Of a stretch of 64,000 nt of DNA, positions 1,856-20,308 are shown one piece after another; the first letter of the stretch is position 1, and every line of letters begins with the position of its first letter. The DNA is from Candidatus Moraniibacteriota bacterium (GTDB taxonomy: Bacteria > Patescibacteriota > Minisyncoccia > Moranbacterales > UBA2206): contig JAUSNP010000006.1 of NCBI GenBank assembly GCA_030645735.1, positions 196,095 to 260,094 on the forward strand. Direction: 5' to 3'. Under the pieces are notes generated by a model. That model had not been told where the DNA came from. It saw nothing but the letters and a program-made list of their open reading frames with translations, and did no database searches. A program made the position numbers and the translations under genes.

Positions 1856-1886
1856 AAAAAAAATCGGAGCTTAGCTCCGATTTTTA
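1856..1886. terminator. bidirectional rho-independent terminator (metK / GT4 convergent)
   Basis: A-run, hairpin TCGGAGC-tta-GCTCCGA, T-run. Confidence 0.7.
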
Positions 1887-3029
1887 ATGTTTAATGATGC
1901 TTTTTTCCAACAAATCAATCGAGTTATTCCAATCCCATTTTTTAGTAGTTTCAAGTCCGGTTGTAATCAACTTATTTCGCAAAGATTCGTCAGATATTAA
2001 TCTCTCAATTGCTTTTTTAGCACTTTCAATATCCTCCACTATCAAACAATTTTCACCATCAACAGCATACTCCTCAATGCCAGTTACCCTTCTAATCACA
2101 GCCACGCCTCCGCAGGCCATCATTTCCAGTGGTGGGTAACAAAAACTTTCCACCTTACTCATTTTCAACAAGATATCACAGGAAGAATATATTTTTGGCA
2201 TATCTTGCAAAGAAACATTTTCAAAAAATCTATCATATTTCCAATCTCTTCTAGGCTTTCCATTGTTGCTCACTATCCAAAGTTCACAATCCAAATCCTT
2301 GACCACCGCATAAGCATCATCCATGCCTTTATATGAAATATTGATTCCGCCTTCAATCAAAATCCGAATCTTGTTGGCTTTCGGCTCAATGGCTTCCGTC
2401 TTGTGAAACATATTCAAATCCAGACCATTCGGCACACAATGAGCATCTTGTCCGAATTCTTTTTTCAGCCATTCCTGAAGCCAAGAAACCGCCACCACAT
2501 ATTCCAACGGGAGTTCATATGTTTTTTTTATTTTTTTAGTTAATTCCGCATCTTCTGGAAAAAAACGACTTTCATCTGATTGCACAAAATATAGTTTTCT
2601 TTTTGCTTTGGACATATCCACTGAAAATGCTGTGCTATAGGCGGTCGCAATCAACACATCCGCTTCATCACTCTCCAATATCTCTTGTGTTTGGCTGTAT
2701 GGCAGAATTTCCACTTCTTGATTTGGAAACCAACTCCCATCGTTGCTATTATTGAGCGACAAGATCTTGACATCATATCCTCTTTGCAACAATCCATTTG
2801 CATGTTGAAATACAACCGCAATTCCGCCAGAAATTTTCACCCCCGGAACCAAATAAAAAATCTTTTGCTCTTTTGCATTTTTTTCTATAAAACTGGCCGT
2901 TGTCTTTCTATCTGCATTAAACTTTTCCCATCTGGCATACTCTCCGTCAAAAAAGAAACGAGTCTTGATCGTTTTGTCATTCAAGCACAAATAGCTCTTT
3001 TTCAAAAATAACCTTATTTTTTGATTCAT
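1884..3029 (-). CDS. glycosyltransferase family 1 (GT4)
   Basis: C-terminal EX7E region ...ESFCYPPLEMMACGGVAVIRRVTGIEEYAVDGENCLIV typical of GT4 retaining glycosyltransferases. Confidence 0.8.
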   Translation of the reverse strand: MNQKIRLFLKKSYLCLNDKTIKTRFFFDGEYARWEKFNADRKTTASFIEKNAKEQKIFYLVPGVKISGGIAVVFQHANGLLQRGYDVKILSLNNSNDGSWFPNQEVEILPYSQTQEILESDEADVLIATAYSTAFSVDMSKAKRKLYFVQSDESRFFPEDAELTKKIKKTYELPLEYVVAVSWLQEWLKKEFGQDAHCVPNGLDLNMFHKTEAIEPKANKIRILIEGGINISYKGMDDAYAVVKDLDCELWIVSNNGKPRRDWKYDRFFENVSLQDMPKIYSSCDILLKMSKVESFCYPPLEMMACGGVAVIRRVTGIEEYAVDGENCLIVEDIESAKKAIERLISDESLRNKLITTGLETTKKWDWNNSIDLLEKSIIKH

Positions 3030-3035
3030 ACCGAA

Positions 3036-4007
3036 TTAACCTAAATATTTTTTCAAAAATTTTATTGGAGAAAATAACATAAACTGCAATTTAGATTTGA
3101 TTTCATTGTTATCAGAGATATGCCATGCCTTTGAATAATCAATTTCTGATTTATTATTTTTCAACCTATTCTCATTAGCTTTTTTGTTGGCAAATTTCAT
3201 CGCTTCTGTATACGGAGTTTGCTTCAAAAAAAACACCATCTTTTTATAAAAATTTGCCTCATTTCCCTCCAGTCTTCTTTTTGTTTCCATTGGCAATTCC
3301 TGCATCATCTTGATCCATAAAGCGTTACCTTCAACAACAACTTTTGGACTTATACTGGAAGCTTGAGATTTATGAACTCTATATTTGGCCAACACCGCTG
3401 GGAGATGAATGAACTTATATGTTTTCATCATTTCAAACCACTTTGCATAATCCTGAGTACATTTCAATTTCTCATCAAAAAAACCATATTGATCAAAAGC
3501 CTTCTTTGGTATTAGCAATGTGTTGCCATTTATGTGGCCATGAAACAAGGCATACTCGGGTTTGGACATCAGCATCTTATGATCCAATCTCATTGTTTTT
3601 ATTTTCCTTGCATTTTCATCTATGAATTCAAAATCTGAATATAATATAACATTCCTATCTTTCAGGGTTGCTAGAATTTCTATCTGCTTTTCAAGCCTAT
3701 TAGGCAAAAACAAATCATCATGGCTAAGCCACGAAAAATATTCGCCTTTCATTTCTTTGAGAGCTAAATTCAAAGCCGAAGATACTCCACCATTTTCCTT
3801 GGCAAAGTATCTAATTTTATCCCCATAAGATTTAGCGATTTTTTCCGTATCATCAGTTGATCCATCATTAACAATAATAGTCTCAATATTAACATATGTC
3901 TGAGCAGAAACGCTTTCTATGGCTTCCCTTAAATAATTAGCACCATTAAAAACTGGTATAATTATGGAAACTAATGGGTTAAATTTTTGATTATTAGATT
4001 GCAACAT
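3036..4007 (-). CDS. glycosyltransferase family 2
   Basis: N-terminal VSIIIPVFNGANYLREAIESVSAQTY..IVNDGSTDDT GT2/GT-A signature (DXD region). Confidence 0.85.
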   Translation of the reverse strand: MLQSNNQKFNPLVSIIIPVFNGANYLREAIESVSAQTYVNIETIIVNDGSTDDTEKIAKSYGDKIRYFAKENGGVSSALNLALKEMKGEYFSWLSHDDLFLPNRLEKQIEILATLKDRNVILYSDFEFIDENARKIKTMRLDHKMLMSKPEYALFHGHINGNTLLIPKKAFDQYGFFDEKLKCTQDYAKWFEMMKTYKFIHLPAVLAKYRVHKSQASSISPKVVVEGNALWIKMMQELPMETKRRLEGNEANFYKKMVFFLKQTPYTEAMKFANKKANENRLKNNKSEIDYSKAWHISDNNEIKSKLQFMLFSPIKFLKKYLG

Positions 4008-4019
4008 TTTGTAAATATT

Positions 4020-5117
4020 CTAATTTGTAGTTTTATCAATCATCACTATTTTCTTAAATTTAAATCGTAATATATCCGCTATATTTAGAATAAAAGGTGT
4101 TAAAATAAAATACAATTTTACCCGCAACGCTTCCACTGCAAGAGCAACTATCGCAACAAGAAAAATAAAAGATAAATCAATCAAAAAATAATACTTACTA
4201 CCAAAAAATATAGTGTACGGTAAAAATTTTTGCAAAAATGTAATAAAAAATACATGTATAATATATCCGCCATACACTAAGCCACCAATATAATTTATAA
4301 TTTCACTATTAAATTTCAATCTATAGAAAAAAAGAAACAGAAATATTCCCTGAATAACAATAAACAAAGAAGATAATTCCACATAATTAAGCGTGGTCTT
4401 ACTGGAATTGAAAATACAATATACAAATATAGATATAGGTATAATCATATAACCCAATAAAAAAAATTGTTTTTTAACCTTAATTTCATATTTACCAAAA
4501 TAAGCGCCTACAACATAAATCGCAATAAAAAGAAAAATGCGAGAACTTACTCCCAATAATCCAGTAAATAAGTGCTTATCAAGAAACAACGATGTTGTAG
4601 GATTAATTGTGGAAACAAATAATAGCAAAAGGAATAAATACAAATGCTGCTTCCTTGAACAGTACAATAAGAGCTTATTTATGTAAGGAATGAATAATGC
4701 TAAAATAACCAAGACCACGATGTACCATAAGTGATAAAAAGCACCTACCAAAGAGATGACATCACCAAAGACAAAAATAATTTTTTTAAAAATATCTCCA
4801 TGTATCGGAAGAATGGTCGAATAATCAAACAAAAACAATGCTGGTGCATATATTAAAAAAGGTGCTCCTAATTTCTTAAAATATTTTTTAATATTAAATT
4901 CTTTATTCACCATCAAAAAACCCGATATTAAAATGAAACCAATAACAGCAGGAGCGACAGAAATCCTCATTAGTGATGCATAATACCATGGAAATGAATT
5001 CTGTTGCATGCCACCACTTTTAAGAACGAGCCCCATAGTTGTTACATGTATTGAAATAACCATCAAGAATAACACTATTCTGAATAATTCGATATTGGAT
5101 TTAATTTTTATCATCAA
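4020..5117 (-). CDS. polytopic membrane protein, probable acyltransferase-3 (O-acetyltransferase) family
   Basis: ~10 predicted TM helices; N-term IELFRIVLFLMVISIHV resembles acyltransferase_3 start; sits among glycan genes. Confidence 0.45.
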   Translation of the reverse strand: MMIKIKSNIELFRIVLFLMVISIHVTTMGLVLKSGGMQQNSFPWYYASLMRISVAPAVIGFILISGFLMVNKEFNIKKYFKKLGAPFLIYAPALFLFDYSTILPIHGDIFKKIIFVFGDVISLVGAFYHLWYIVVLVILALFIPYINKLLLYCSRKQHLYLFLLLLFVSTINPTTSLFLDKHLFTGLLGVSSRIFLFIAIYVVGAYFGKYEIKVKKQFFLLGYMIIPISIFVYCIFNSSKTTLNYVELSSLFIVIQGIFLFLFFYRLKFNSEIINYIGGLVYGGYIIHVFFITFLQKFLPYTIFFGSKYYFLIDLSFIFLVAIVALAVEALRVKLYFILTPFILNIADILRFKFKKIVMIDKTTN

Positions 5118-5155
5118 CTTAAATTTAAATAAATATAACTAATTGACTAGAAAAT

Positions 5156-7606
5156 TTATTTCATTCCTATTTTCTTAAGATACTTTTTTATTTTATTGCC
5201 ATAACGAACTGCCCTGCAACTTGCTAATCTATCGTAAGTCATTTGCACATGCTGATACTGTAACTGCAACTGTTTTTTCTCATCTTGCAAATTATTGTTT
5301 TCTTTTTGCAATTGCGCTTTCTCAGATTGCAATACTATATTATCAGGACTATGCAATTTGCTTAAAATCAATTCTCGCTCTAAAAGTTCCACCTTATTGC
5401 AATCAGGCTTAGTTATTTTTAAACTATTGATTAAAAATTTTAGAGACTTTTCTTTTTCAATATCCAAGATTTTATGCACCATATTATAATCAATCAATTC
5501 TTTATAAATATCCAAATTTGTAATATCATCTATGCTTTTTAGAAACCTATTTTTAATATTTAAGGTAGTCAGTAAACTTTCAAGTCTATTATTTCCAGCA
5601 TAATCTCTAGCAATAACAATAAATTGCTTTTTGAATATGATTGCAAATATTACGCAATGATAGGAATCGGTTATGACAAATTCGCTATTCTTAATATAGT
5701 TCAACCAATGGGAAACACTATGATATACAAATCTTTTTTTACCAAATATTTCTTTTTCTATGCCTCTAATGTTCAAGAGGTTGCCATTCATTTTTTCAAT
5801 AACATTGGTCACGAATGGATTTATTTTTATAGCCTCTTCCAATTTTTCATCTAAGCTAAAATATGCTATATATTTTTCGGTGTGCTCCTCGATAATATCA
5901 TCATTTATTATTTCCTGATATCCACTCTCGTCTATTAGAAAAGTTGGATCTAACACGCATTGCGCATCAAAACCAAAAATATTTTTGCAAATATCAACAC
6001 CTTCTTTTTCACGTACAGATATCGCTGAAAAATTCGTTAGTGCATCCTTAACTTTTTTTATCTCATCAATTGTTCCTTTCCAATGGGTCTCAGCAAAGCT
6101 GGGTGCATAGGAAAAGATATTTTTTGAAGGAAAGACAAAATTTAAAAAATATTTTCCAATATCATTCTTAAATACATTACTTAGATAATTATAATTCCAG
6201 ACTTGATCACTGCCGACTACAAAAGTATCAAATTGCTCGTTCAATTTAACCAAATCATTATCGGTCTTGCATACATGTGTCGTTTTGATAAAATTTTCTC
6301 TAAATTTATAAAATCCTATCGCGCATAATTTATCCTCCTTGCTTTCAGGAATTTCAGAAATATAATTAATTATTTTTGCAGTATAGCCAAGATTTTCAAT
6401 ACTTTTCCACAATGCAAATGCCTGCAATGTTGCACCAAAATTACGGCTAGGGAGTCGCATATTGAAAATTCCCACGCAATTTTTCACTTTATCACCTTCA
6501 TTATTCAGATGCTTGGATATCAAATCTCCAATATTACCATCATGCATCAATAATTCTTCAAAAAATTCTTCTCTCTTGGGATGTTTATCGCATGGCAGAC
6601 TCAATGCAAGATTCCCCTGATGAGCTATAGCAAGAGGAACCTTCTCTGCGATTATTTTAGTTTTTATTTCATTAAAAACAGATTCCCCTTTTGCGCTATT
6701 TACTAAAATCAATGAGGTGCCTTTATCATCATCCAATTCATTCTTATAACTACCTATGGCCCAAAAATCCCCCAATGTTATATCTGATTGCCTCGGAAGT
6801 GTCGCAAATGGACAATTGGTACATAGAGGTTTAAGATATAAATTCCCCAAAAATCCTCTTCCAAAGACATCACCATTATTCATTATTTCTTTATGGATTG
6901 TATTATTATTTTCATCATTCATTGAAAAACTGTATGTTTTCCATCCCGTTGATTTGTCTCGAAATTCTATTTTTCTAACCCTTTCGCCAGTTAACTTCTC
7001 AACATCTTTCATATATTTATCAAAAACCAATGGCGAAGGAGTGCCATGACACATCACATCAACAGTGACCAATTTCTCATAATCTTCCTGCAAAAAAGCA
7101 CAAAGTCCAGCAACCTGGCATGGGGTTCCCACAAACAAAACCCAGTTATCCTCTTGGAGCAGTTTTTTGATGTCCAAAAATATGTCGCCAATTTCACTTT
7201 GTAGATACTTTGAGCCTCGCAATTTAGGCAAATCATTCTCGTCAGCTATTATTACATGTCTCAGTTTGTTATCAGCATCAAATCCAGCTCCACAAACAAA
7301 ACCATTCTTACTGAAAATATATTTCGCGATAATGGAAAATAGACCTCCTGACGAAGAATTTTTCCTAATAAACTCATCCTTACTCCACCCAGCATAGCAG
7401 GCAGGATCTGCACTTTGATTTTTTTTGATGTATTTATTGAGAACAGGGCAGGTTTTTCTGCATAAATTACAACTTGTGCATTTTACTTCATCGATAATAG
7501 GATACAAAAAACCTTCAATGTCTTTCTGCATTGAGATTGCTCCACTTGGACAAACACTATAGCAAGCGCTACATCCAGAACATTTATTTTTTGGAACTAT
7601 TTGCAT
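5156..7606 (-). CDS. fusion protein: 2x[4Fe-4S] ferredoxin + FrhB/FdhB-like (F420 hydrogenase beta-like) domain + polysaccharide pyruvyl transferase-like domain + C-terminal coiled coil
   Basis: N-term CSGCSACYSVCPSGAI...CTSCNLCRKTCPV (two Cx2Cx2Cx3CP); FrhB-like domains are known partners of CsaB/WcaK-type pyruvyl transferases in polysaccharide loci; last ~70 aa heptad-rich (ELLERELILSKL...LQKENNNLQDEKKQLQLQYQHVQ). Confidence 0.55.
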   Translation of the reverse strand: MQIVPKNKCSGCSACYSVCPSGAISMQKDIEGFLYPIIDEVKCTSCNLCRKTCPVLNKYIKKNQSADPACYAGWSKDEFIRKNSSSGGLFSIIAKYIFSKNGFVCGAGFDADNKLRHVIIADENDLPKLRGSKYLQSEIGDIFLDIKKLLQEDNWVLFVGTPCQVAGLCAFLQEDYEKLVTVDVMCHGTPSPLVFDKYMKDVEKLTGERVRKIEFRDKSTGWKTYSFSMNDENNNTIHKEIMNNGDVFGRGFLGNLYLKPLCTNCPFATLPRQSDITLGDFWAIGSYKNELDDDKGTSLILVNSAKGESVFNEIKTKIIAEKVPLAIAHQGNLALSLPCDKHPKREEFFEELLMHDGNIGDLISKHLNNEGDKVKNCVGIFNMRLPSRNFGATLQAFALWKSIENLGYTAKIINYISEIPESKEDKLCAIGFYKFRENFIKTTHVCKTDNDLVKLNEQFDTFVVGSDQVWNYNYLSNVFKNDIGKYFLNFVFPSKNIFSYAPSFAETHWKGTIDEIKKVKDALTNFSAISVREKEGVDICKNIFGFDAQCVLDPTFLIDESGYQEIINDDIIEEHTEKYIAYFSLDEKLEEAIKINPFVTNVIEKMNGNLLNIRGIEKEIFGKKRFVYHSVSHWLNYIKNSEFVITDSYHCVIFAIIFKKQFIVIARDYAGNNRLESLLTTLNIKNRFLKSIDDITNLDIYKELIDYNMVHKILDIEKEKSLKFLINSLKITKPDCNKVELLERELILSKLHSPDNIVLQSEKAQLQKENNNLQDEKKQLQLQYQHVQMTYDRLASCRAVRYGNKIKKYLKKIGMK

Positions 7607-7640
7607 ATTGTAGAAAAAATCATTTACCTCATTTTAAAAT

Positions 7641-9893
7641 TTACATTTTTTTATAAATTTTATAATAAATAATTTTAAATAAATTAAACATTGCTTTTCT
7701 AAAAGTAGTTCTGATTTTTTTAGGAATATGATTTTTATTTCTAAACACCGTGGATACAGGAAGATGAGAACAAATATACAATTCCCACTTTAAATACTCC
7801 CTGCTAAATCCTGATTCAATTGTATTATCGTTGCATATTAACCCCGTGGTTGTATTCTTTTTTAATTGTTGCAAAATCAATTCAGAGCTTTTATCAAGAT
7901 GATGATTTGACATTACTTCACCATAAATACTAATCATTTTTTTCACATAAATATCTTTGGAATAATTCTCCTTCGCAAACTCTAAGGATTTTTTACCTCG
8001 CTCAATAATTTCTTTAGGATTATCAATCAATTTTTGCAACTCTTCTGCAAAATATTTTTCACTAACCGCTAAACCACAACCTGGTGAATTAACAACCTCG
8101 GGTAATGCCGAGCCATCACTTTCTAGTGCCAACACCATCTTGCCACAACTCATAGCCTCAATTGCCATCATGCCAAATGTTTCCTGCCTAGAAGGCATTA
8201 GGAATATGTCACAAGCCTGATATAGTCTTGCCAACAATTTATCATCTTTAATCCAGCCATATTCGATGATATTAAATTTATCCTCAAATCCTTTTAACAA
8301 CCCTTTTTGTCCAACAGTAATTAATGTGATTGTTTTCAAATTTTTTAGTCGCGCTAGGGCGTGCTTTATTATATCTAGACCCTTGTACGAGCCAGCATCA
8401 GCTCTAAACATAATAGTAATTGATTTTTCCTGGATGTTAAATTTTGCTTTTGCTAATTTAATATCTACAGCATCAAACAATTTTTGATTAACACCAAATG
8501 GCAGTAAATAAGCCTTTTTTCCTTGCCAAATTGGTGATTGTTCAACTTTATTTTTCATCCAATTTGATGCTACGACAGCCGTAATTTGTGAATTTTGAAT
8601 AGCCTGCTTTTTTAATTCAAAATTTAATGCACTAATATCCTTATCAAGTACAAATGGCTCATTGATATATGAACAGTCCTTGCAATGAACTTGCCATTTT
8701 TTACAATCAAAATGGTGCACGCAATGGCCACCCAAAAAAAATGGATCATGCAATGATAAAATAGTAGGTTTTAATTTAGTCATAATCGGCAAATAATTCA
8801 AGTCTATAATGTTGTGAATTAGATGCAGATGCACAATATCCGATTCAAAAAATATTCTCTCTTGTATCAAGCCCTTTGTAGCGTCTTTAGTATTGAAATC
8901 ATAAGCATATGTGTTGAAATCATCAGACTCTTTAAATAAAACTAACTGTTTAGAATCTATTGCGTTTTTACGTAAATCCAGATGTAAATCATAGCCATTG
9001 AACTTATTTCCGATTAAATCATAGGAAGAAATTTGTAAATTTTTCACTATTTTTTTCTCTATATATTCTAGGGCTATACTATATTCTGCACACTGAAAGA
9101 AATCACGCATATCATGATAAAAAGTCAACTTATCTGAAGCAAGTAATTTTATATCTTCATCAGTTAAATTATTTATTACTGAGATAAATAACGCGCTGTA
9201 TTCCTCATTACCACGACTCTTACTCCGGATTCCTTGCCTCTTTGAAGAATCGCGAGCCGTAACCAACACTTCAGATATTAATTTGTGAGGAAATTTTAAA
9301 AAGGCTCTATAGAAAAATTCAAAATCTTGAGCAACCAACTGACTTTCATCAAACAAGCCAACCGTATCAAAACACACCTTGGGTATTAGCAACGTGCAAC
9401 CATGAGTTTGATTATAAATAACTGGATGAATATTTGATTTTAATCTTGGAGGATATTTGTCTATATGTTTTGCGTAATCAGTCTGATATATTTTTTTATA
9501 TTTTTCATTTATACCATCAAGATCAGACATTATGATAGTGTCTCTATTTTCCAGCTTACTCAACTCATCAACTTGCCGTGCAATCTTAGTTGGATAATAC
9601 ATATCATCGTGGCTTAACCATGAAAAATAGCTACCCTTCATATTTTTTATCCCAACATTCAATGCTGTCGTAGTTCCACCATTTTCTTTTGAAAAATATC
9701 GCACCTTATCCCCATATGATTTAACTATCTCTTCAGTATTGTCTTTCGAACCATCATTAACAACTATAATTTCAATATTTTTATATGTTTGGGCAAGCGC
9801 ACTGTCAATAGCCTCTCTCACATAGTTTGAACCATTATACACTGGTATAACTATTGATATTAAGGGATTGAAATTAATTGTTACCATAATCAT
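7641..9893 (-). CDS. bifunctional glycosyltransferase, N-terminal GT2 + C-terminal GT4 domains
   Basis: N-term ISIVIPVYNGSNYVREAIDSALAQTY..VVNDGSKDNT (GT2); C-term ...QETFGMMAIEAMSCGKMVLALESDGSALPEVV (GT4 EX7E). Confidence 0.8.
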   Translation of the reverse strand: MIMVTINFNPLISIVIPVYNGSNYVREAIDSALAQTYKNIEIIVVNDGSKDNTEEIVKSYGDKVRYFSKENGGTTTALNVGIKNMKGSYFSWLSHDDMYYPTKIARQVDELSKLENRDTIIMSDLDGINEKYKKIYQTDYAKHIDKYPPRLKSNIHPVIYNQTHGCTLLIPKVCFDTVGLFDESQLVAQDFEFFYRAFLKFPHKLISEVLVTARDSSKRQGIRSKSRGNEEYSALFISVINNLTDEDIKLLASDKLTFYHDMRDFFQCAEYSIALEYIEKKIVKNLQISSYDLIGNKFNGYDLHLDLRKNAIDSKQLVLFKESDDFNTYAYDFNTKDATKGLIQERIFFESDIVHLHLIHNIIDLNYLPIMTKLKPTILSLHDPFFLGGHCVHHFDCKKWQVHCKDCSYINEPFVLDKDISALNFELKKQAIQNSQITAVVASNWMKNKVEQSPIWQGKKAYLLPFGVNQKLFDAVDIKLAKAKFNIQEKSITIMFRADAGSYKGLDIIKHALARLKNLKTITLITVGQKGLLKGFEDKFNIIEYGWIKDDKLLARLYQACDIFLMPSRQETFGMMAIEAMSCGKMVLALESDGSALPEVVNSPGCGLAVSEKYFAEELQKLIDNPKEIIERGKKSLEFAKENYSKDIYVKKMISIYGEVMSNHHLDKSSELILQQLKKNTTTGLICNDNTIESGFSREYLKWELYICSHLPVSTVFRNKNHIPKKIRTTFRKAMFNLFKIIYYKIYKKM

Positions 9894-9908
9894 TGTGTTA
9901 CAAATTAT

Positions 9909-11009
9909 CTACAATAAGGTAGTTTTGTTTATCTTTTTAATCCAAAAGCCATTTGAACCCCAGAATGCCACATTTTTTCCATGGAAAAATAATTCTTTGT
10001 GTAAATCACTATAATTTCTGCTGATGTGTGCATTAGGCAATATAATTTCGAAATCCTTATTGCACGATAAAAAAGCTTGCAAAAGGTAACTCTCAGTCCA
10101 AAACATTCTAAAGGTTGGCGTTGTAAACAACGCCTTGCAATACTCGCGAGGTAAATCTATATCATGAAAATGAATAATCACTCCCTTATTTAAAATAGGT
10201 AATACTTCGAGTATTTCAAAATTAACATCACTTCCTGCCTTACAGACATGCGAAGAATCAATAAATAAGATATCATTTTCTTTAAGTCCAAGGAAAAACT
10301 CTGGATTAAGTAGCTCTACTGGTTGTTTTAGTACCGTAGTGCAATTAGGGTATCCATCTAAATCTACCAAAGAATATGGATCTACAATTGTGTAATTTTC
10401 ACATTTAAATCCATCCTTTTCATTTAATTTTACTGCCTCGCGAATAATCTTCGAGGAATTACCAGAGCCAATCTCAATTATTCTTCTGGGTTTATTTTCC
10501 CTTATCATAGAATGCAAAGCAGAAGCACATCCATAAGAAAAGCACCTATTATTTAAATAAAATTCCCTAGGATCGCTAGTTGGATCCTCACTCCACCTAC
10601 ACTCATCTGCCCATTTTGCAAGTTCTTTTAAATTATTTAAAAAAACATTATCATCGAACTTAATTCCGCTTAGCGCACTCACCTTGTCCCAAGCTTTTCT
10701 TTTTTCAAGTTCTTTTATATCTGGTATTGGTTGGTAAAAATGTACTGGTACAAGTAAAAAATTATTTTCTAAACATTTATCTGAATTATCTCCGGTAGTT
10801 GCCCAATCTTTTATCACCTCAATAATATCACCTATCTGTTCCTCATTTAATACCATTTTTTTTTCAACTTCTATACTTTGTTTATCTTTTTTTTGATTTA
10901 CCATTTGATTAAGAGCACTCGTAGAACTCTCTACCAATTTTGCTACATTTGAAGATAATTTCCCTAATCTGTTAAAGCCCTTTTTTTTAAAAAAATTAGT
11001 TATATGCAT
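9909..11009 (-). CDS. putative class I SAM-dependent methyltransferase (glycan-modifying)
   Basis: RRIIEIGSGNSS glycine-rich SAM-binding motif I; acidic motif II region; ~110-aa N-terminal extension. Confidence 0.5.
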   Translation of the reverse strand: MHITNFFKKKGFNRLGKLSSNVAKLVESSTSALNQMVNQKKDKQSIEVEKKMVLNEEQIGDIIEVIKDWATTGDNSDKCLENNFLLVPVHFYQPIPDIKELEKRKAWDKVSALSGIKFDDNVFLNNLKELAKWADECRWSEDPTSDPREFYLNNRCFSYGCASALHSMIRENKPRRIIEIGSGNSSKIIREAVKLNEKDGFKCENYTIVDPYSLVDLDGYPNCTTVLKQPVELLNPEFFLGLKENDILFIDSSHVCKAGSDVNFEILEVLPILNKGVIIHFHDIDLPREYCKALFTTPTFRMFWTESYLLQAFLSCNKDFEIILPNAHISRNYSDLHKELFFHGKNVAFWGSNGFWIKKINKTTLL

Positions 11010-11025
11010 TGAATTTTTTTATTAA

Positions 11026-12153
11026 TTAACTCGCTTTTTTTCCCCATGTTCTTGTATTAACAATATTGGTGTAACTTTGGATTATTTTTATAACTTTTTC
11101 TGAAACATTATTATCCTGATAATCTTTCACGAGGTTTTTTCTTTCTGCAGAATGTGTCTTGACGGCGATTTCGATGGCACTCAACATATTGTCCGCATCA
11201 ATTCCGCCCAACACGATACTGCCAGCATCCAGTGCTTCTGGCCGCTCTTGGCTTGTTCTGATTGAAACGGCCGGAAAATTCAAAATTGCCGATTCTTCTG
11301 AAATCGTTCCACTATCCGACAACACGCAATAGGCATCTTTCTGCAATTTCACATAATCAAAAAATCCCAATGGCTCAACATTCCTAATCAAATCGTTGAA
11401 TTTGATATTTTTTTCAGCTATTTTTTTAGCAGTCCGCGGGTGTGTTGAAAAGATAATTGGCATTTGATATTTTTCTGCCACCGCATTCAAAGAATTTGCC
11501 AAGATTTCAAAATTATTCCCAACATCTAAATTTTCTTCCCTATGTGAACTAACAACGAAATATTTTTTTTCTGTAATGTCTAATTTTTCCAAAACATTTG
11601 ATTGCTCAATTTTTTCCTTATATGCGTGCAGAACTTCGGTCATTGGTGAGCCTGTCACATACACAAAGTCGTTTTTCATGCCTTCAGCAACCAAATATCT
11701 CCGAGCATTTTCCGTGTAGGCCAAATTAACATCGCTCACATGATCAATGATTTTCCGATTGATTTCTTCCGGTACATTGAAATCGAAACAGCGATTGCCA
11801 GCTTCCATATGGAAAATCGGAATCTTGAGTCTCTTGGCGGAAATTGCCGCCAAACCACTGTTGGTGTCACCGAGAATTAAAAGCGCATCAGGCTTTTCTT
11901 TGAGCATCACCTCATACGATTTTGCAATCACATTACCCATCGTTTGACCCAAATTTTCGCCAGGGGTTTCCAAATAATAATCCGGTTTTCGCAAATCAAA
12001 ATCTTTAAAAAAAACTTCGTTCAGATTATAGTCATAATTTTGCCCCGTGTGCACAAAAACAACCTCAAAAAAGTTTTCCATTTTCTGAATCGTCAGCGCC
12101 AGGCGAATAATTTCCGGCCGCGTGCCAACAATGACCATTACCTTTTTTTTCAT
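11026..12153 (-). CDS. UDP-N-acetylglucosamine 2-epimerase (non-hydrolysing; FnlC/WbvD/Cap5G-like)
   Basis: MKKKVMVIVGTRPEIIRLA...HTGQNYDYNLNEVFF...HMEAGNRCFD...STHPRT WecB-family motifs. Confidence 0.85.
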   Translation of the reverse strand: MKKKVMVIVGTRPEIIRLALTIQKMENFFEVVFVHTGQNYDYNLNEVFFKDFDLRKPDYYLETPGENLGQTMGNVIAKSYEVMLKEKPDALLILGDTNSGLAAISAKRLKIPIFHMEAGNRCFDFNVPEEINRKIIDHVSDVNLAYTENARRYLVAEGMKNDFVYVTGSPMTEVLHAYKEKIEQSNVLEKLDITEKKYFVVSSHREENLDVGNNFEILANSLNAVAEKYQMPIIFSTHPRTAKKIAEKNIKFNDLIRNVEPLGFFDYVKLQKDAYCVLSDSGTISEESAILNFPAVSIRTSQERPEALDAGSIVLGGIDADNMLSAIEIAVKTHSAERKNLVKDYQDNNVSEKVIKIIQSYTNIVNTRTWGKKAS

Positions 12154-12157
12154 AAGT

Positions 12158-13027
12158 TTAGATATGCTTATTTAAAATAATTTGCTTATATTTTTCTTCA
12201 TGGTTGTCGATCCATTCAGACATCTCTTCAATCATCGTTTCATAAGTTGGAATCTGGAAATCAAAGTCGGTTCTGGAATTAATCAGACTCTTATTGCTCA
12301 CATATGCACTGTCTTCCTTGATGACAATATCCTTGCTCATATATTTTTTAAATAAATTGAGCAAGTCATATTTGTTTATTTTCTCATTATTCACCAAATG
12401 ATACAACCCTGTGACATTCCAATCAAAAGATTTTTCAATTGCCTTGGCCAATTCCAAAGTAGTTACACCCGTCCAAATTACCTTGCTAAAACCTTTGGTC
12501 TCGCCTTTTTGTTGCATGAACCAATTGAACAGCCCGAGGCCTTTTTCATTGACATCTGGCCCAACAATTGAAGTTCTAAATGTTACACTTCTTTCGTTAT
12601 TCACTTCCCCTAAAGACTTGGTTTTTCCATAAAAAGATGTGGCATCTGCAAAATCAGTTTCCCCATAATCTCCCTTTTCTCCTGAAAAAACACAGTCAGT
12701 GCTGATATGAACGAATTTGAATTGATATTTTTCAGAAAGCGAATCAATATAGTGAGGCAAAAATGAATTGATAAGCACTGCTCCAGATTTATTATCTTCT
12801 GCAAATTGATTCAAAACACCAATACAATTTATAACAAAATTTGGTTCTATTCTATCAATAATCACTTCCAACTCTTTGAAATCTCCGAGAACGTCAAAAA
12901 AACTATTTTTCTCCATAGTTTCTTTTCTGGTTGTAGCATAGACATCATATTCCTTTTCTTCCAAAAAAGTTTTAATCATATTCCCCGCCATGCCATCTGC
13001 GCCTAGAATTAATATTTTTTTATCCAT
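12158..13027 (-). CDS. RmlD-like NAD(P)-dependent sugar-nucleotide reductase (WbvR/FnlB-like, 289 aa)
   Basis: MDKKILILGADGMAGNMI Rossmann start, YGKTK catalytic motif; positioned between the CapD-like dehydratase and the 2-epimerase. Confidence 0.7.
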   Translation of the reverse strand: MDKKILILGADGMAGNMIKTFLEEKEYDVYATTRKETMEKNSFFDVLGDFKELEVIIDRIEPNFVINCIGVLNQFAEDNKSGAVLINSFLPHYIDSLSEKYQFKFVHISTDCVFSGEKGDYGETDFADATSFYGKTKSLGEVNNERSVTFRTSIVGPDVNEKGLGLFNWFMQQKGETKGFSKVIWTGVTTLELAKAIEKSFDWNVTGLYHLVNNEKINKYDLLNLFKKYMSKDIVIKEDSAYVSNKSLINSRTDFDFQIPTYETMIEEMSEWIDNHEEKYKQIILNKHI

Positions 13028-13034
13028 ATTGTTT

Positions 13035-14030
13035 TTATTTGAATAAATCCAATTTAAGTAATATTTTTTTCATCCCATCGACATCTAGTCGCTCAGTATT
13101 GTGCGAATTATATTCGTCTATTTTATCAAATTCAACATTACCCGCATTTTCATAATTAGTATAATTCAGGGTACGATTATCCGGAAATATTCGATAGTAC
13201 TCTCCTAAATCAGCTGAACTAGCCATTTCTTCCTTTGTCACCAAGACTTCGAATAATTTTTCTCCGTGACGCGTACCGATGTTTTTGATGTTAACATCCG
13301 AATTTTTCAATTCTTTGATGGCTTTTGCCAAAACATCGATTGTGGCGGCTGGTGCTTTTTGCACAAATAAATCGCCTTGCTCCCCATGCTCAAATGCGTA
13401 CAAAACCAGATCCACTGCGTCTTCCGCAGTCATCATGAAACGCGTCATATCCGGATTAGTAATAGTGATTGGTCCACCATTTTCAATCTGTTCCACAAAC
13501 AATGGGATGACTGAACCGCGTGATCCCATCACATTGCCATAGCGCGTTCGACATATAACTGTCTCGTCTTTTCTCAAATTGCGCCCCTTGGCAACTGCCA
13601 CCTTTTCCATAAGAGCCTTTGTCATGCCCATTGCGTTGATTGGATAGGCGGCTTTGTCTGTGCTAAGCACGATAACCTTTTTGACTTTTTTATTTATTGC
13701 AGCTTCCAAAACATTATCAGTTCCAAGTATGTTCGTTTTGACAGCCTCGATTGGGAAGAATTCACAGGACGGAACTTGTTTCAAGGCCGCAGCATGAAAA
13801 ACATAATCGACGCCTTCCATTGCATTCTCAATACTGCGATAGTCGCGGACATCACCTATATAGAATTTGATTTTTTCATTGTTATATGCTATTCGCATAT
13901 CCTCCTGTTTTTTTTCATCTCGAGAAAATATTCTTATTTCCCTTAAATCAGACTCTAGAAATGTCTTCAATACTGCATTTCCGAAAGTCCCTGTTCCACC
14001 AGTTATTAATAAAATCTTATCGTTAAACAT
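13035..14030 (-). CDS. UDP-N-acetylglucosamine 4,6-dehydratase/5-epimerase, short CapD/FnlA/WbvB/PseB family
   Basis: MFNDKILLITGGTGTFGNAVL..., STDKAAYPINAMGMTKALMEK, YGNVMGSRGSVIPLF motifs. Confidence 0.85.
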   Translation of the reverse strand: MFNDKILLITGGTGTFGNAVLKTFLESDLREIRIFSRDEKKQEDMRIAYNNEKIKFYIGDVRDYRSIENAMEGVDYVFHAAALKQVPSCEFFPIEAVKTNILGTDNVLEAAINKKVKKVIVLSTDKAAYPINAMGMTKALMEKVAVAKGRNLRKDETVICRTRYGNVMGSRGSVIPLFVEQIENGGPITITNPDMTRFMMTAEDAVDLVLYAFEHGEQGDLFVQKAPAATIDVLAKAIKELKNSDVNIKNIGTRHGEKLFEVLVTKEEMASSADLGEYYRIFPDNRTLNYTNYENAGNVEFDKIDEYNSHNTERLDVDGMKKILLKLDLFK

Positions 14031-14055
14031 ATTTTTAAAAAATTATTTATTAGAA

Positions 14056-15375
14056 TTATTTTAATAGCCATTCATGTTTAATATCACAAAGGCCTCTATA
14101 TTTAGCTTTTAATCCTACTGCAAATATTTTTAATTCTTTATATTTTTGTTTCACATCATAGTAAATTTTTTCGCTATCGTCAAAGCAAGCAACGTTCAAA
14201 TAATAATCTCCTTTTAATATCGGCATACTATCAAAATGCAAAACGATATAGTCGCTCCTATTGCCAATTTCAAAATTATCCATCTGAGTATTATAACTAA
14301 AAATTCTTTCGTCTTTCTCAATTCCATAAAGGCCTATGCCAATATTAACACCATTAGCTTCCTTATTAATTTTATAATAAATTTTTATATCCACTGATTC
14401 ACCTGTTTCAAAAGCATTTTTTACTTTTCCGTCCTTATCCAAAAATTCAATGTTGGTTATTTCTGCGACTTTATTTTTTCTTTCTTCCTCCAATTTTATT
14501 TTTTCCAATTCGATTCTTTTCTTTTCAAATTCCAACTCCCGTCCCTTCATATTCTTCAGGTTTTTTTCCGCTTGAATGATTTTCTGTTTTTCAATTTCTT
14601 CCATTCGCCTTTCCTCATCTGACATATTTTCATAAACATAAGCATTGCCCACCTCTTCAGCCTTTCCAATTTTCACAATTTTTCCGTTGCGCAAAAGCAT
14701 TGCTCGATCACAATATCTCTGCACCGTGCCAGTATCGTGCGTCACTAAAATAACCGTTTTACCCATTTTCTTATAACGATTAAATTCCGTCAGACATTTA
14801 CTCTGAAAATTTGAATCTCCTACTGCCAATACCTCATCCATCAGCAAAATCTCACGATTAGCATGAATAGAAACTGAGAAAGCTAAACGCACTTGCATAC
14901 CAGAAGAATAATTTTTCAATTTTTGATCGATGAATCGTTCTAACTCTGAAAAAGCTACGATTGAATCAAATTTTTCATCAATCTGTTTTTTGGTCATTCC
15001 TAAGACAGTTGCATTTAGATATACATTATCTCGTCCAGAAAGCTCGGGATTGAAACCAATGCCCAATTCCAAAAATGGTGAAATCATGCCGTCTATTTCC
15101 ACTTTTCCTTTGTCGGCCTGATAGATGCCAGCCAAAACCTTCAAAAGTGTTGACTTACCTGAACCATTGCGACCAATGATACCAAAAAACTCACCTTTCT
15201 TCACTTCAAAAGAAACATCGTCCAATGCTTGAAATTCCTCAAAACCGCCACTCTTAAAAAGACCCGTGACCGCGCCACGCACAGAAGTCACCTTTTCATG
15301 AGGGATGCGGAAGGTTTTTGAGACATTTTTGACTGAAATAGCAATATCTTTATCCATTTTTCTATTGTACAACAT
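14056..15375 (-). CDS. wzt: polysaccharide ABC exporter ATP-binding protein Wzt/TagH-like with coiled-coil linker and C-terminal putative glycan-binding domain
   Basis: Walker A GRNGSGKST, signature SSGMQVRLAF, Walker B LLMDEVLAVGD; then Glu/Lys-rich coiled coil and ~150-aa beta-rich C-terminal domain. Confidence 0.8.
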   Translation of the reverse strand: MLYNRKMDKDIAISVKNVSKTFRIPHEKVTSVRGAVTGLFKSGGFEEFQALDDVSFEVKKGEFFGIIGRNGSGKSTLLKVLAGIYQADKGKVEIDGMISPFLELGIGFNPELSGRDNVYLNATVLGMTKKQIDEKFDSIVAFSELERFIDQKLKNYSSGMQVRLAFSVSIHANREILLMDEVLAVGDSNFQSKCLTEFNRYKKMGKTVILVTHDTGTVQRYCDRAMLLRNGKIVKIGKAEEVGNAYVYENMSDEERRMEEIEKQKIIQAEKNLKNMKGRELEFEKKRIELEKIKLEEERKNKVAEITNIEFLDKDGKVKNAFETGESVDIKIYYKINKEANGVNIGIGLYGIEKDERIFSYNTQMDNFEIGNRSDYIVLHFDSMPILKGDYYLNVACFDDSEKIYYDVKQKYKELKIFAVGLKAKYRGLCDIKHEWLLK

Positions 15376-15427
15376 TTTTTACCCCCTATCAAGCCGGGTT
15401 TTCAGATACTTTTTAACTTTATGGACT

Positions 15428-15457
15428 TTCGACTTTATGGACTTATCATGCTATAAT
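15428..15457 (+). promoter_or_regulatory. candidate promoter (-35-like CGACTT, 17-nt spacer, extended -10 TGcTATAAT) giving a near-leaderless transcript for the SpoIID-like gene
   Basis: atgcTATAAT at 15449-15457, ATG at 15470; preceded by two GACTTTATGGACTT repeats. Confidence 0.45.
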
Positions 15458-15469
15458 ACCAATGAAATT

Positions 15470-16846
15470 ATGAAAAAAATACATACAAAAATTATAATTA
15501 CTTTGGCGATTTTTGCGTTTTTGCTGTCTGCCAAAAGTGTCTCAGCAGCCGCATCCTGTTCTGCGATTTCAGTTGTTGGCGATTGGAATGGTGACGGGAA
15601 AACCAAGATCGGCATCTTTAGAAATGGCAATTGGTACTTAGATAGCGACGGGAATGGCAAACTTGAATATGATAAGGATATTATTGGAAAACTTGGCATG
15701 TTGTCTGGAGATGTTCCTATTGTTGGCGATTGGAATGGTGACGGGAAAACCAAGATCGGCATCTTTAGAAATGGCAATTGGTACTTAGATATAAATGGAG
15801 ATAGTCTGTGGGATGGTGGCTTAGTTGATATTCTTTCTCCCAATTTTGGAATTGAATTAGCATGCCCAGCAAATATTGGACCAGATATTTCTGTTGGACT
15901 TTGGAGCTATACTCGAGATGACATACGCTCAACTGGAGAACCTTTTAAGATCACTGCTAACAAGAACTATGTCATAAAAAAGGGTGACGGAACCATCATA
16001 GCCACTGTCATATCAACTCAGCAAACAAGAGCTATTTATGAAAGCGCTGGCAATCTGCAGGTCTATAGTACCGATGATGGCATTCCACTGACAAACATGG
16101 GTGATAGAATTATTTTTGAATCGGCAGACGGAAACAACACTGATATGATATTTGATGCCCATCGCCCATCAATTCCAACACCGGAATATAGCAACTACAA
16201 CCACTATCGCGGAAAAATAGAATTGCGCTACACGGATAATTCAAAAAACAATGCCATCTATGGAGATGGTGAGACTAAGCGTATCTGGGTAATCAACGAA
16301 CTGCCCCTCGAACACTACACTTGGGGCATGGCAGAGTTGAATCTTGCTAATGTGACCGAACATAATAAAGTGATGGTGAGCATTTTCAGAACTTACGGAA
16401 AAAGTAAAACAGAACTAATCACATATTACAACCAACTAGGTTTTGATTTGGTTTCAACTCCCTCCTCACAAAAATACAACGGCTATGACTATGAAATATC
16501 TCATCCCACGATAAAAAAGGCAGCTGAAGAAACCAGCGGTAAAATCATCACTTATCAAGGCAAGACTGCTCTCACGGCCTATTCCTCTTGGAGTGACGGA
16601 AGAACCAGAGCGCTAGATCTCAATCTCTATCCTTACCTGAAACCAGTTGATGATCCGTATGGCGACTACAATGGGGCTTATTGGAATAATGCCTACAAAA
16701 GTACCAGTGACCTTCTTGCTAGTGGAAATCACATGAAAGGTCTAATCGCGCATGGCTCCGTCACACTTGCCTATGACTTCCATTGGGATTGGCAAAGAAT
16801 TCTGAAATATTATTACACTGGGATAGGAATAACTTCGGCATATTAA
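15470..16846 (+). CDS. secreted SpoIID/LytB-domain protein with two N-terminal FG-GAP-like repeats
   Basis: Signal peptide MKKIHTKIIITLAIFAFLLSAKSVSAAAS; duplicated VVGDWNGDGKTKIGIFRNGNWYLD; C-term TYQGKTALTAYSSWSDGRTRAL..YPYLKPVDDPY resembles SpoIID motif (tYnGkpi.A.fhSsSgGrTe...PYLrsV.dP); the ORF-track start at 15305 is a spurious extension overlapping wzt. Confidence 0.6.
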   Translation: MKKIHTKIIITLAIFAFLLSAKSVSAAASCSAISVVGDWNGDGKTKIGIFRNGNWYLDSDGNGKLEYDKDIIGKLGMLSGDVPIVGDWNGDGKTKIGIFRNGNWYLDINGDSLWDGGLVDILSPNFGIELACPANIGPDISVGLWSYTRDDIRSTGEPFKITANKNYVIKKGDGTIIATVISTQQTRAIYESAGNLQVYSTDDGIPLTNMGDRIIFESADGNNTDMIFDAHRPSIPTPEYSNYNHYRGKIELRYTDNSKNNAIYGDGETKRIWVINELPLEHYTWGMAELNLANVTEHNKVMVSIFRTYGKSKTELITYYNQLGFDLVSTPSSQKYNGYDYEISHPTIKKAAEETSGKIITYQGKTALTAYSSWSDGRTRALDLNLYPYLKPVDDPYGDYNGAYWNNAYKSTSDLLASGNHMKGLIAHGSVTLAYDFHWDWQRILKYYYTGIGITSAY

Positions 16847-16852
16847 ATCTTT

Positions 16853-17398
16853 ATGAAAACATCTTCAAAAATTTTTAGCGTTCTGTTCCTAGGTGCTTTA
16901 ATTGTACTTGCCTATTTTGCCTTTCCCATCATAAAACAGCGTTATTTTACAGATGAGCCGGTCACGCCCGTGAAAATTAATATCTCCACGGATGATTCAA
17001 CCGCAACAGAAAACACTAATCCCAATGATCAGGCAAGTCCAGAGATTTCCGATGACACTGAACAAACAGATGGATCTATCCCAGTTGAGCAAATAGATGT
17101 TTTCAAAACTATCACCAAGCAAGATTGTCTAAATGAATGCTCCGCGTTCAAAAGCACTTCCGACAAAGAATATTGCCTACAAGTCTGCAGTTCATCCTCC
17201 TCTACTGAAAATAACACTCAATGTTCTGAGAAATCCGGATTGCAAAAAGACTATTGCCACAAAACTCTTGGTATTACAAACAAAGATTTCGAAGAATGCA
17301 AAAAAATAACCGACAAAAACATACAAGAATCATGCATAAACACAGTCACTGATAAAATTCTTGAGCGGAGCGATTCAACGGAAGATCGAAATCCCTAA
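16853..17398 (+). CDS. small secreted/membrane-anchored cysteine-rich hypothetical protein
   Basis: N-terminal hydrophobic anchor, Ser/Thr/Asp-rich linker, 10 Cys in C-terminal 90 aa; 7 nt downstream of the SpoIID-like gene. Confidence 0.45.
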   Translation: MKTSSKIFSVLFLGALIVLAYFAFPIIKQRYFTDEPVTPVKINISTDDSTATENTNPNDQASPEISDDTEQTDGSIPVEQIDVFKTITKQDCLNECSAFKSTSDKEYCLQVCSSSSSTENNTQCSEKSGLQKDYCHKTLGITNKDFEECKKITDKNIQESCINTVTDKILERSDSTEDRNP

Positions 17399-17506
17399 AA
17401 ATGGCTGTTATTATCCCACTTGGCCAAAACCGCATCCTCGAAGACTCACTTGAAAACCAACCAAAATCCAACACGCTAGATTTCTAACCTCGCAAAAAAC
17501 TTTCCA

Positions 17507-17536
17507 CAAAAAAACGGAGTCGAACTCCGATTTTTT
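17507..17536. terminator. bidirectional rho-independent terminator
   Basis: A-run, CGGAGT-cgaa-CTCCG hairpin, T6. Confidence 0.65.
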
Positions 17537-17541
17537 GTGTA

Positions 17542-18579: not shown

Positions 18580-18630
18580 AATATTCCAATCATAGCATAT
18601 TTTCACCGAATTGTTCAAAAATCCTCAAAT

Positions 18631-18666
18631 TCTGTAGGGGTTCTGTAGGGGTTTCCCTCCTACAGA
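18631..18666. repeat. REP palindromic element copy 1 (partial half-copy + full imperfect copy)
   Basis: tCTGTAGGGG + tCTGTAGGGGTTTCCctCCTACAGa immediately 3' of the RAYT stop codon. Confidence 0.8.
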
Positions 18667-19305: not shown

Positions 19306-19327
19306 CTTTTTTGTTTTATTTTTATAT

Positions 19328-19349
19328 CTGTAGGGGTGAAACCCCTACG
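19328..19349. repeat. REP palindromic element copy 3 (degenerate right arm)
   Basis: CTGTAGGGGTGAAACCCCTACg followed by ttaCCCacac. Confidence 0.75.
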
Positions 19350-19372
19350 TTACCCACACATTATTATTTTTT

Positions 19373-19786: not shown

Positions 19787-19847
19787 ATTTTTACACTTAA
19801 TAATTAAACAAGTTAATCAAGCCTTATTTACTTTTTATTTCCTATAT

Positions 19848-19883
19848 CCGTAGGGGTTTCACCCCTACATTACCCCTACATTA
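19848..19883. repeat. REP palindromic element copy 4 (with duplicated right arm)
   Basis: CcGTAGGGGTTTCACCCCTACAttaCCCCTACAtta. Confidence 0.8.
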
Positions 19884-20291: not shown

Positions 20292-20308
20292 ATTTTTTAA
20301 TAAAAGAA

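Follow-up and report, generated by a model that had tools for sequence, protein, structure and literature searches.

How a bacterium without an outer membrane might terminate and export a surface glycan is the question raised by a run of genes in a 64,000-nucleotide (nt) stretch of DNA from a Candidatus Moraniibacteriota bacterium (assembly GCA_030645735.1, contig JAUSNP010000006.1, positions 196,095 to 260,094), here called the window. The run encodes Wzt, the ATPase of a transporter of the ATP-binding cassette (ABC) type, and an 816-amino-acid (aa) protein in which ferredoxin, FrhB-like and pyruvyltransferase-like domains are followed by a helical stalk and a basic C-terminal anchor. Since the host is a candidate-phyla bacterium that lacks an outer membrane, the glycan would be linked to the wall or the surface and would not be lipopolysaccharide (LPS). 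The coupling of chain termination to export gated by a cap has been worked out well in a small number of Gram-negative O antigens, whose caps are methyl, methylphosphate or keto-deoxyoctulosonate (Kdo) groups. We put the probability at about 0.5 that the locus is the core of an ABC-transporter-dependent operon for a cell-surface glycan, a terminate-then-export system in which the cap gates export. The 816-aa protein is predicted to be its terminator-type component on account of a portable tail, the presence of one tail protein per locus, the adjacency of a GT2-GT4 glycosyltransferase (GT) gene, the association with Wzt, and a published marker, namely the C-terminal or central coiled coil of the glycan terminators of Klebsiella O4, O7 and O12 and of Escherichia coli O9a (PMC11231755).

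The 816-aa protein was modelled with AlphaFold2 (predicted local distance difference test, pLDDT, 85.7) and the model was searched with Foldseek. Together with the Pfam matches, the model divides the protein as follows:

5156-7606, minus strand: the whole 816-aa FrhB-pyruvyltransferase-stalk protein (Pfam, AlphaFold2)
7427-7606, minus strand: 2x[4Fe-4S] ferredoxin domain, residues 1-60 (Fer4 at residues 6-56; Fer4_7, E value 5e-10)
6482-7426, minus strand: FrhB-like flavin/Fe-S domain, residues ~61-375 (PF04422 and PF04432, Foldseek)
5408-6481, minus strand: pyruvyltransferase-like GT-B domain, residues ~376-733 (PF04230, Foldseek)
5219-5407, minus strand: helical stalk, residues ~734-796 (AlphaFold2 helices 735-752 and 754-795)
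5159-5218, minus strand: basic amphipathic C-terminal anchor, residues ~797-816, RAVRYGNKIKKYLKKIGMK (AlphaFold2 helix 798-812)

The original prediction, made from the sequence of the window, had described a FrhB/ferredoxin-pyruvyltransferase fusion ending in a coiled coil of ~70 aa. The fusion was borne out by the Pfam matches and by the structural match of the model, which has a GT-B-like fold of two Rossmann domains in this part, to the yeast pyruvyltransferase Pvg1p (5ax7; E value 1e-5, TMt 0.58). The helical nature of the tail was likewise seen in the AlphaFold2 model, while its coiled-coil character proved weak, as set out below.

The anchor helix at residues 798-812 (RAVRYGNKIKKYLKK) has a hydrophobic moment of 0.73 and a net charge of +7 (shuffle p = 0.004). 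Homologues of the FrhB-pyruvyltransferase fusion number in the thousands, and their C termini form several classes. In the closest ~25 homologues, a helical stretch of variable length is followed by a conserved basic motif that reads N-[ST]-K-[TS]-[FW]-[RK]-[YI]-..-I-K-..-L-.-K-.-G or NSTSW[RK]ITxPIR. The spacer between the two conserved anchor motifs varies from 52 to 125 aa and clusters at the heptad multiples 63, 70, 77 and 91, with 9 of 20 spacers exactly divisible by 7 (p = 9e-4, kinship ignored). A second class of tail is found in fusions from loci without Wzm/Wzt (P0023, P0024, P0029, P0031-P0033, P0037 and the one in L004, among others), which end in two or three LFGxIPLLKIK-like repeats and have no helical stalk; LFGxIPLLKIK repeats also end many gut-bacterial homologues. 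In yet another locus (L042, 8546-11528), an 815-aa pyruvyltransferase fusion is tail-less and is followed directly downstream by a separate open reading frame (ORF) of 154 aa, a coiled coil ending in SYSYRITAPLR; here, the tail module has apparently split off as a gene of its own.

When 1.84 billion representative proteins were searched with a profile built from the last ~38 residues, the same tail was found on other catalytic heads. It is carried by P0266, a fragment of a FkbM-like methyltransferase that shares a nearly identical tail with the window protein, by P0278, a methyltransferase of 292 aa that shares one with the homologue in the closest related locus (L001), and by P0297, another FkbM-like methyltransferase. 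It also occurs on GT2 and GT4 enzymes, on two proteins with an unknown head of ~250 aa and on one canonical pyruvyltransferase. GT99 is the family of the Kdo terminator WbbB, and the GT99-like protein P0298 bears the window-type tail motif, although its GT99 match is weak (E value 1e-4). The stalk-plus-anchor tail is a module portable between enzyme classes, and the near-identical tails of P0266 and P0278 suggest that catalytic heads were recently swapped on a conserved anchor within this lineage.

We compared the genomic surroundings of the tail-bearing genes with a set of 159 other FrhB-pyruvyltransferase loci, taken from the matches listed by two unbiased metagenome/genome scans with the family alignment. 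The scan matches were mostly distant (at most 45% identity), and the close loci were found by exact-protein look-ups. Wzt was present in all nine tail-bearing loci but in only 10 of the 159 others among the matches listed (Fisher test, p = 4e-10, kinship ignored). In each related locus, the tail profile matched exactly one protein, which was always the FrhB-pyruvyltransferase, and a GT2-GT4-like gene lay directly upstream of the tail-bearing gene in eight of the nine. As an observation apart from these loci, a Prevotellaceae locus (L025, 7815-12352) contains wzm and the gene of a C-terminally extended Wzt of 434 aa; the FrhB-like and pyruvyltransferase genes come next, separate from each other and without a stalk. 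In this locus, the chemistry may have been paired independently with an extended Wzt.

The exporter ATPase itself was resolved into three parts:

14056-15375, minus strand: wzt, 439 aa, the first gene of the run
14626-15375, minus strand: nucleotide-binding domain (NBD) of Wzt, residues 1-250 (ABC_tran, E value 7.8e-22; 6amx, E value 1e-64)
14470-14625, minus strand: Glu/Lys-rich two-helix linker of Wzt, residues ~251-302 (AlphaFold2 helices 253-275 and 279-300)
14059-14469, minus strand: C-terminal beta-sandwich carbohydrate-binding domain (CBD) of Wzt, residues ~303-439 (Wzt_C, E value 6.2e-18; Foldseek)

The ABC_tran match covers residues 51-182, and the ATPase domain resembles that of Aquifex aeolicus Wzt (6amx) as well as TagH/TarH (E value 1e-54). 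The predicted C-terminal binding domain of Wzt was confirmed both by sequence and by fold. Wzt_C (PF14524) matches residues 297-417 with 65.6 bits against a cutoff of 30.4, and an AlphaFold2 model of residues 240-439 (pLDDT 83), searched with Foldseek against the PDB, returned solely solved Wzt CBDs as its top 17 matches (E values from 7e-9 to 1e-5). Among them were the A. aeolicus structures 6o14 and 8dky, 5hno, which binds a Kdo cap, and 2r5o from E. coli O9a; the best fold match was the A. aeolicus domain (TMt 0.74), which in 8dky contains bound 3-O-methyl-mannose. Characterised carbohydrate-binding modules (CBMs) of Wzt with a known ligand bind terminal caps (structure descriptions; PMC11231755). 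A search with the Wzt CBM yielded only 22 relatives, mostly fragments without gene context. The Glu/Lys stretch preceding this domain had been taken for a coiled coil. It is indeed charged (58%) and helical, with two predicted helices of ~22 residues joined by a K-G turn, but the heptad shuffle test detected no hydrophobic pattern in it (p = 0.88), and charged helical linker is the more fitting term. The linker is confined to a small group of Patescibacteria Wzt proteins, and its length differs widely among the 18 relatives compared.

The run to which both genes belong (1884-15375, minus strand) comprises ten tightly packed genes with intergenic gaps of 4 to 38 nt. Its other members and the separately located permease gene are as follows:

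13035-14030, minus strand: FnlA/WbvB-type UDP-GlcNAc 4,6-dehydratase/5-epimerase (Polysacc_synt_2, E value 9e-105, and Polysacc_syn_2C)
12158-13027, minus strand: RmlD-like 4-reductase, 289 aa (RmlD_sub_bind, E value 1e-24)
11026-12153, minus strand: non-hydrolysing UDP-HexNAc 2-epimerase, WecB-type (Epimerase_2, E value 2e-94)
9909-11009, minus strand: Methyltransf_24 S-adenosylmethionine (SAM)-dependent methyltransferase, 366 aa, candidate O-methyl cap enzyme (PF13578, E value 1.5e-10)
7641-9893, minus strand: two-module GT2-GT4 glycosyltransferase, 750 aa, with a basic amphipathic C-terminal end (GT2, E value 9e-31; GT4, E value 3e-19)
4020-5117, minus strand: Acyl_transf_3 membrane O-acyltransferase (PF01757, E value 6e-21)
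3036-4007, minus strand: GT2 glycosyltransferase (Pfam)
1884-3029, minus strand: GT4 glycosyltransferase, last in the run (Pfam)
23950-24774, minus strand: wzm, the ABC-2 permease partner of Wzt (ABC2_membrane, E value 7e-14)

The FnlA/WbvB-WbvR-WbvD pathway leads to UDP-N-acetyl-L-rhamnosamine (UDP-L-RhaNAc) or UDP-N-acetyl-L-quinovosamine (UDP-L-QuiNAc) (Kneidinger et al. 2003, cited in PMC7685785), and the set of FnlA-like, reductase and 2-epimerase genes predicts one of these two products here. NCBIfam is in line with the FnlA and WecB-type assignments: the product of the 2-epimerase gene scored 251 bits with TIGR00236, over the cutoff, and that of the FnlA-like gene 563 bits with TIGR04130 (FnlA), under the 730-bit cutoff. 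The fusion with a GT2 module at residues 13-161 and a GT4 module at residues 480-628 (Pfam) is likely the polymerase. Both this fusion and the SAM-dependent methyltransferase had been placed in the gene run by the original prediction, and the Pfam matches agree. The methyltransferase had also been credited with an N-terminal extension; this region is mostly conserved family sequence, and homologues align from about residue 60. The order wzt, FnlA-like gene, reductase, 2-epimerase, (methyltransferase), GT2-GT4 and FrhB-pyruvyltransferase-stalk gene is kept in L001, L003, L030, L166, L168, L169 and L170. The closest relative of the window is L001, where the homologue of the 816-aa protein is 68% identical. 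As in the window, the tail-bearing enzyme of L169 is followed by an Acyl_transf_3 gene.

Put together, these parts suggest the following mechanism. A polymer containing L-RhaNAc or L-QuiNAc, and perhaps L-rhamnose (L-Rha), would be made on a lipid carrier at the cytoplasmic face of the membrane by the GT2-GT4 enzyme. The basic amphipathic C terminus would hold the 816-aa enzyme at the membrane or the polymerase, and the helical stalk would keep the catalytic head ~6-9 nm away. The head would then add a three-carbon acid derived from phosphoenolpyruvate (PEP), more likely as a reduced 1-carboxyethyl (lactyl) ether than as a pyruvate ketal, to the distal non-reducing sugar and thereby block extension, and the Methyltransf_24 enzyme may place an O-methyl group on the same terminus. 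Binding of the capped end by the C-terminal domain of Wzt would license export via Wzm/Wzt.

The distribution of the components over the ten loci in which a Wzt is visible, with the gene content given within 20 kb where noted, is as follows:

Window, L001, L166 and L168: tail-bearing enzyme, yes; Methyltransf_24, yes; Wzt_C, yes
L164: tail-bearing enzyme (FrhB-pyruvyltransferase), not seen in 20 kb; Methyltransf_24, yes; Wzt_C, yes
L169: tail-bearing enzyme, yes; Methyltransf_24, not seen in 20 kb; Wzt_C, yes
L002, L003, L030 and L170: tail-bearing enzyme, yes; Methyltransf_24, no; Wzt_C, no (245-aa Wzt)

Several observations weigh against a terminator whose cap gates the exporter. Wzt_C is present in just five of the nine tail-bearing loci, the other four having the 245-aa Wzt without a CBM, and the tail-bearing enzyme thus does not need a cap-reading exporter. 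Wzt_C was found in 5/5 loci with the methyltransferase and in 1/5 without it (Fisher p = 0.048, from few independent lineages). The majority of FrhB-pyruvyltransferase genes are found in loci that have no Wzm/Wzt, and there the enzymes must modify repeat units. The stalk of the 816-aa protein is short and broken by two prolines, and the heptad test is not significant (p = 0.13-0.9). Our own coiled-coil scores discriminated poorly. Within residues 754-795, Leu or Val stands at exactly each seventh residue and the second core position is polar; among the homologues, the test is significant in 6 of 20. A canonical coiled coil is supported by this test neither in the tail of the 816-aa protein nor in the Wzt linker. 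The cap-and-gate scheme of the original prediction is partly supported: the terminator-type role of the 816-aa protein has the tail and the loci in its favor, and the patchy occurrence of Wzt_C speaks against a simple gate.

The link between Wzt_C and the methyltransferase allows for a different source of the cap. The Methyltransf_24 enzyme could make it, as an O-methyl group read by Wzt_C, and the 816-aa enzyme would then decorate internal residues and use its tail only to stay in the assembly complex. Methyl groups are the terminal signals read by Wzt in E. coli O8 and A. aeolicus, and the domain that the window CBM matches best in fold, that of A. aeolicus, was solved in complex with 3-O-methyl-mannose. 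Orthologues of the methyltransferase stand in the same gene set at L001, L164, L166 and L168, each together with a Wzt that bears Wzt_C, L164 being without a FrhB-pyruvyltransferase in 20 kb, and the short Wzt occurs in the four loci without the methyltransferase. We nevertheless consider this explanation somewhat unlikely. L169 combines Wzt_C and the tail-bearing enzyme with no methyltransferase in 20 kb; its Wzt is the nearest to that of the window after L001, in the ATPase and the binding domain alike, and apart from glycosyltransferases its only modifiers are the tail-bearing enzyme and the acyltransferase. Moreover, the methyltransferase has neither stalk nor anchor, and a stalk that keeps the head off the membrane is hard to explain for an enzyme acting on internal residues. 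Homologues of the methyltransferase at 50-55% identity (L171, L172) are flanked by SurA-like genes or surrounded by signalling genes, well away from any glycan locus, and capping of glycans is therefore not the dedicated task of this family. A strict rule coupling the methyltransferase to Wzt_C was rejected on the same two grounds, L169 and the distant homologues outside glycan loci. The cap read by Wzt_C could, as far as the sequences tell, be the methyl group, the PEP-derived group, or both on one terminal sugar. Terminal 4,6-pyruvylated 3-O-methyl-glucose occurs in mycobacterial glycopeptidolipids (PMC6801904).

The tail may instead be a tether without any role as a ruler, serving to localise a soluble redox enzyme to the membrane-bound machinery, a function that LFGxIPLLKIK tails may have in loci of the Wzx/Wzy type; the length of the chains would then follow from coupling between polymerase and exporter, and Wzt_C would bind the backbone or a lipid-linked primer. 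The different C-terminal tails of other FrhB-pyruvyltransferases fit this explanation, as some anchor seems to be generally needed, and so do the weak coiled-coil signal, the loci without a CBM and the terminal pyruvate of Klebsiella pneumoniae O1, which has no control over chain length (PMC10629545). Yet the version with a helical stalk is found only in ABC-transporter loci, among the loci compared, and the stalk changes length by whole heptads. The same tail sits on methyltransferase and GT99-like heads, which are known terminator classes, and the solved Wzt CBMs with a known ligand all bind terminal caps (PMC11231755). A mere tether is an unlikely explanation in our view. We also considered that the system is decaying and that no exported glycan is made. 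The wzm gene lies outside the gene run, 8.6 kb from wzt; in L001, whose Wzm is orthologous to that of the window (E value 9e-128), the two genes are 0.9 kb apart, and an insertion of 8.6 kb with an IS200-like transposase gene could have uncoupled them here. However, each of the eleven genes has an intact ORF of full length in which the catalytic motifs are conserved, and wzm is intact and on the same strand, which makes decay very improbable.

What the head of this putative terminator adds is suggested by its motifs. PS_pyruv_trans (PF04230) matches residues 389-669 over profile positions 1-280 of 280 (E value 5e-35). Of the NxGD, Arg and His motifs of characterised pyruvyltransferases (PMC10629545), R532 of the R...(S/T) motif and H650 are kept in 141-143 of ~143 aligned relatives, but the NxGD site reads N389-F-G-A392 and has no Asp. 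None of the ~87 FrhB-associated relatives, fused or split, has Asp at the fourth position of this site, which is occupied by A, S, G or N. In the model of Pvg1p, Asp106 contacts the acceptor sugar, and the D106A variant is almost inactive; we infer that Asp106 is the Asp of NxGD. Because this Asp is missing throughout the FrhB-associated relatives, we do not class the 816-aa protein as an ordinary ketal-forming pyruvyltransferase. Neither the pyruvyltransferase part nor the methyltransferase had any useful match in sequence searches of the PDB.

The N-terminal half points to a redox function. FrhB_FdhB_N (PF04422) matches residues 70-139 (E value 4e-10) and FrhB_FdhB_C (PF04432) residues 154-321 (E value 2e-26), and in Foldseek the FrhB-like part of the model matches 8rja_E (E value 5e-15), FrhB (4ci0_C) and the ferredoxin-dependent reductase HCAR (5dqr). 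Both CxxCxxCxxxCP motifs of the ferredoxin domain are intact and conserved in the homologues, among which Cys163, Cys186 and Cys265 of the FrhB domain are invariant and Cys262 almost so. Members of the FrhB/FdhB family use, besides F420, also flavin adenine dinucleotide (FAD) with ferredoxin, as HCAR does, and the formation of a ketal from PEP requires no redox step. The three conserved Fe-S sites, the flavin-type FrhB domain and the missing Asp of NxGD therefore make a lactyl ether likelier than a pyruvate ketal. By analogy with MurA/MurB, we infer that the fused enzyme would carry out an enolpyruvyl transfer followed by reduction to the lactyl ether. Such an ether, formed at one hydroxyl only, would stop the chain as naturally as the methyl cap does in E. 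coli O8. Taken further, the FrhB-like and Asp-less domains might form a two-step lactyl-ether (1-carboxyethyl) synthase, in which enolpyruvyl would pass from PEP to one hydroxyl of a sugar and be reduced by the Fe-S/flavin part, and might be the enzyme, so far unassigned, that makes the "glycolactilic acid" sugars of many bacterial polysaccharides. In this lineage, it would have been recruited via the portable tail, which methyltransferase and Kdo-transferase-like heads also bear, as a new cap chemistry read by the CBM of Wzt; we regard this fuller proposal as possible, though doubtful.

Klebsiella capsules offer a parallel. The K37 glycan contains 4-O-(1-carboxyethyl)-glucuronic acid. So does that of K22, for which reference 36 of PMC3857182 names 4-O-[(S)-1-carboxyethyl]-glucuronic acid in its title. 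A survey of Klebsiella capsules found a nitroreductase gene and a dedicated pyruvyltransferase gene (wclZ) to be unique to K22 and K37, and a coenzyme F420 hydrogenase gene with another dedicated pyruvyltransferase gene (wcqF) to be unique to K66. Our literature search found no direct statement on the function of FrhB/F420-pyruvyltransferases, on glycolactilic-acid genes or on the K66 structure, and no paper that says what FrhB-like genes do where they neighbour a pyruvyltransferase gene. The likeness to MurA/MurB, to wclZ with the nitroreductase and to wcqF with the F420 hydrogenase would lie in the pairing of a PEP-using transferase with a flavoprotein reductase. MurA and MurB are not homologous to the enzyme of the window, whose reductase is of the FrhB-like kind, with three Fe-S clusters, and forms a fusion with the transferase.

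Among known terminators, WbdD with the Wzt CBM of E. coli O9a/O8 (K. pneumoniae O3/O5) shares the ABC-transporter pathway, an N-terminal head, a predicted helical stalk, an amphipathic and putatively membrane-proximal C-terminal end, a gene beside that of a multi-module polymerase, and a beta-sandwich CBM on Wzt (PMC11231755). The head of WbdD is, however, a kinase/methyltransferase and not Fe-S/FrhB-like and pyruvyltransferase-like; the stalk is here much shorter (42-61 residues) and weakly heptad, wzm is unlinked, and the product of the monoderm-type candidate-phyla host is not LPS. The closest layout is that of ORF7 of K. pneumoniae O4 (a GT137 Kdo terminator), with a head and a C-terminal coiled coil in a polypeptide apart from the polymerase (PMC11231755). 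ORF7 and the O12 WbbB (GT99) cap with a Kdo sugar, in contrast to the PEP-derived acid proposed here. WbbZ of K. pneumoniae O1 belongs to the pyruvyltransferase family and acts with PEP at the non-reducing end of an ABC-exported glycan (PMC10629545), as is proposed for the 816-aa protein. Unlike the latter, WbbZ consists of one domain, keeps NxGD intact and has neither stalk nor redox domain; the exporter lacks a CBM, and chain length is not set by WbbZ. In other bacteria, pyruvate-based termination has been proposed but is unproven, the candidates of B. vietnamiensis G4 and P. protegens being unvalidated (PMC10629545). On the exporter side, A. aeolicus Wzm/Wzt with its CBD (6o14, 8dky, 7k2t) is closest to the window Wzt, both in the NBD and in the fold of the CBD, and differs by lacking the extra Glu/Lys two-helix linker of ~50 residues between the two. 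If our reading is right, the terminate-then-export strategy would be extended to another cap chemistry, to a terminator that depends on redox and to an uncultured candidate-phyla host without an outer membrane. The stalk-plus-anchor module could serve to find terminators in genomes, and a testable assignment is at hand for thousands of unexplained genes for F420 hydrogenase beta subunits beside pyruvyltransferase genes in the polysaccharide loci of gut bacteria.

The interval between wzm and wzt (window 15305-24774) contains, on the plus strand, a gene for a SpoIID-like protein with repeated GDWNGDGKTKIGIFRNGNWYLD units. It also holds genes for a Cys-rich secreted protein of 181 aa, a GT4 and an LCAT-like hydrolase of 1125 aa, two small ORFs, and the IS200-like Y1 transposase gene (Y1_Tnp) at 18667-19305. 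The guanine-plus-cytosine (GC) content is 0.28-0.37 over the glycan operon (window 2000-16000) compared with ~0.40 in the remaining window, which is typical of variable surface-glycan loci. Several further GT4 genes follow at 26380-33812. A nearby group of genes on the same strand (34725-43396) includes two nucleotidyltransferase genes (33813-35855), rmlD (40109-41044), rmlB (41753-42757) and rmlC (42851-43396), with unrelated genes, that for SHMT among them, in between; with these genes nearby, L-rhamnose may be a component of this glycan or of a second one. Other cell-surface functions in the window are represented by a sortase with a bacterial TSP3 repeat (47166-48062) and by an 885-aa DUF4012 protein (57245-59902).

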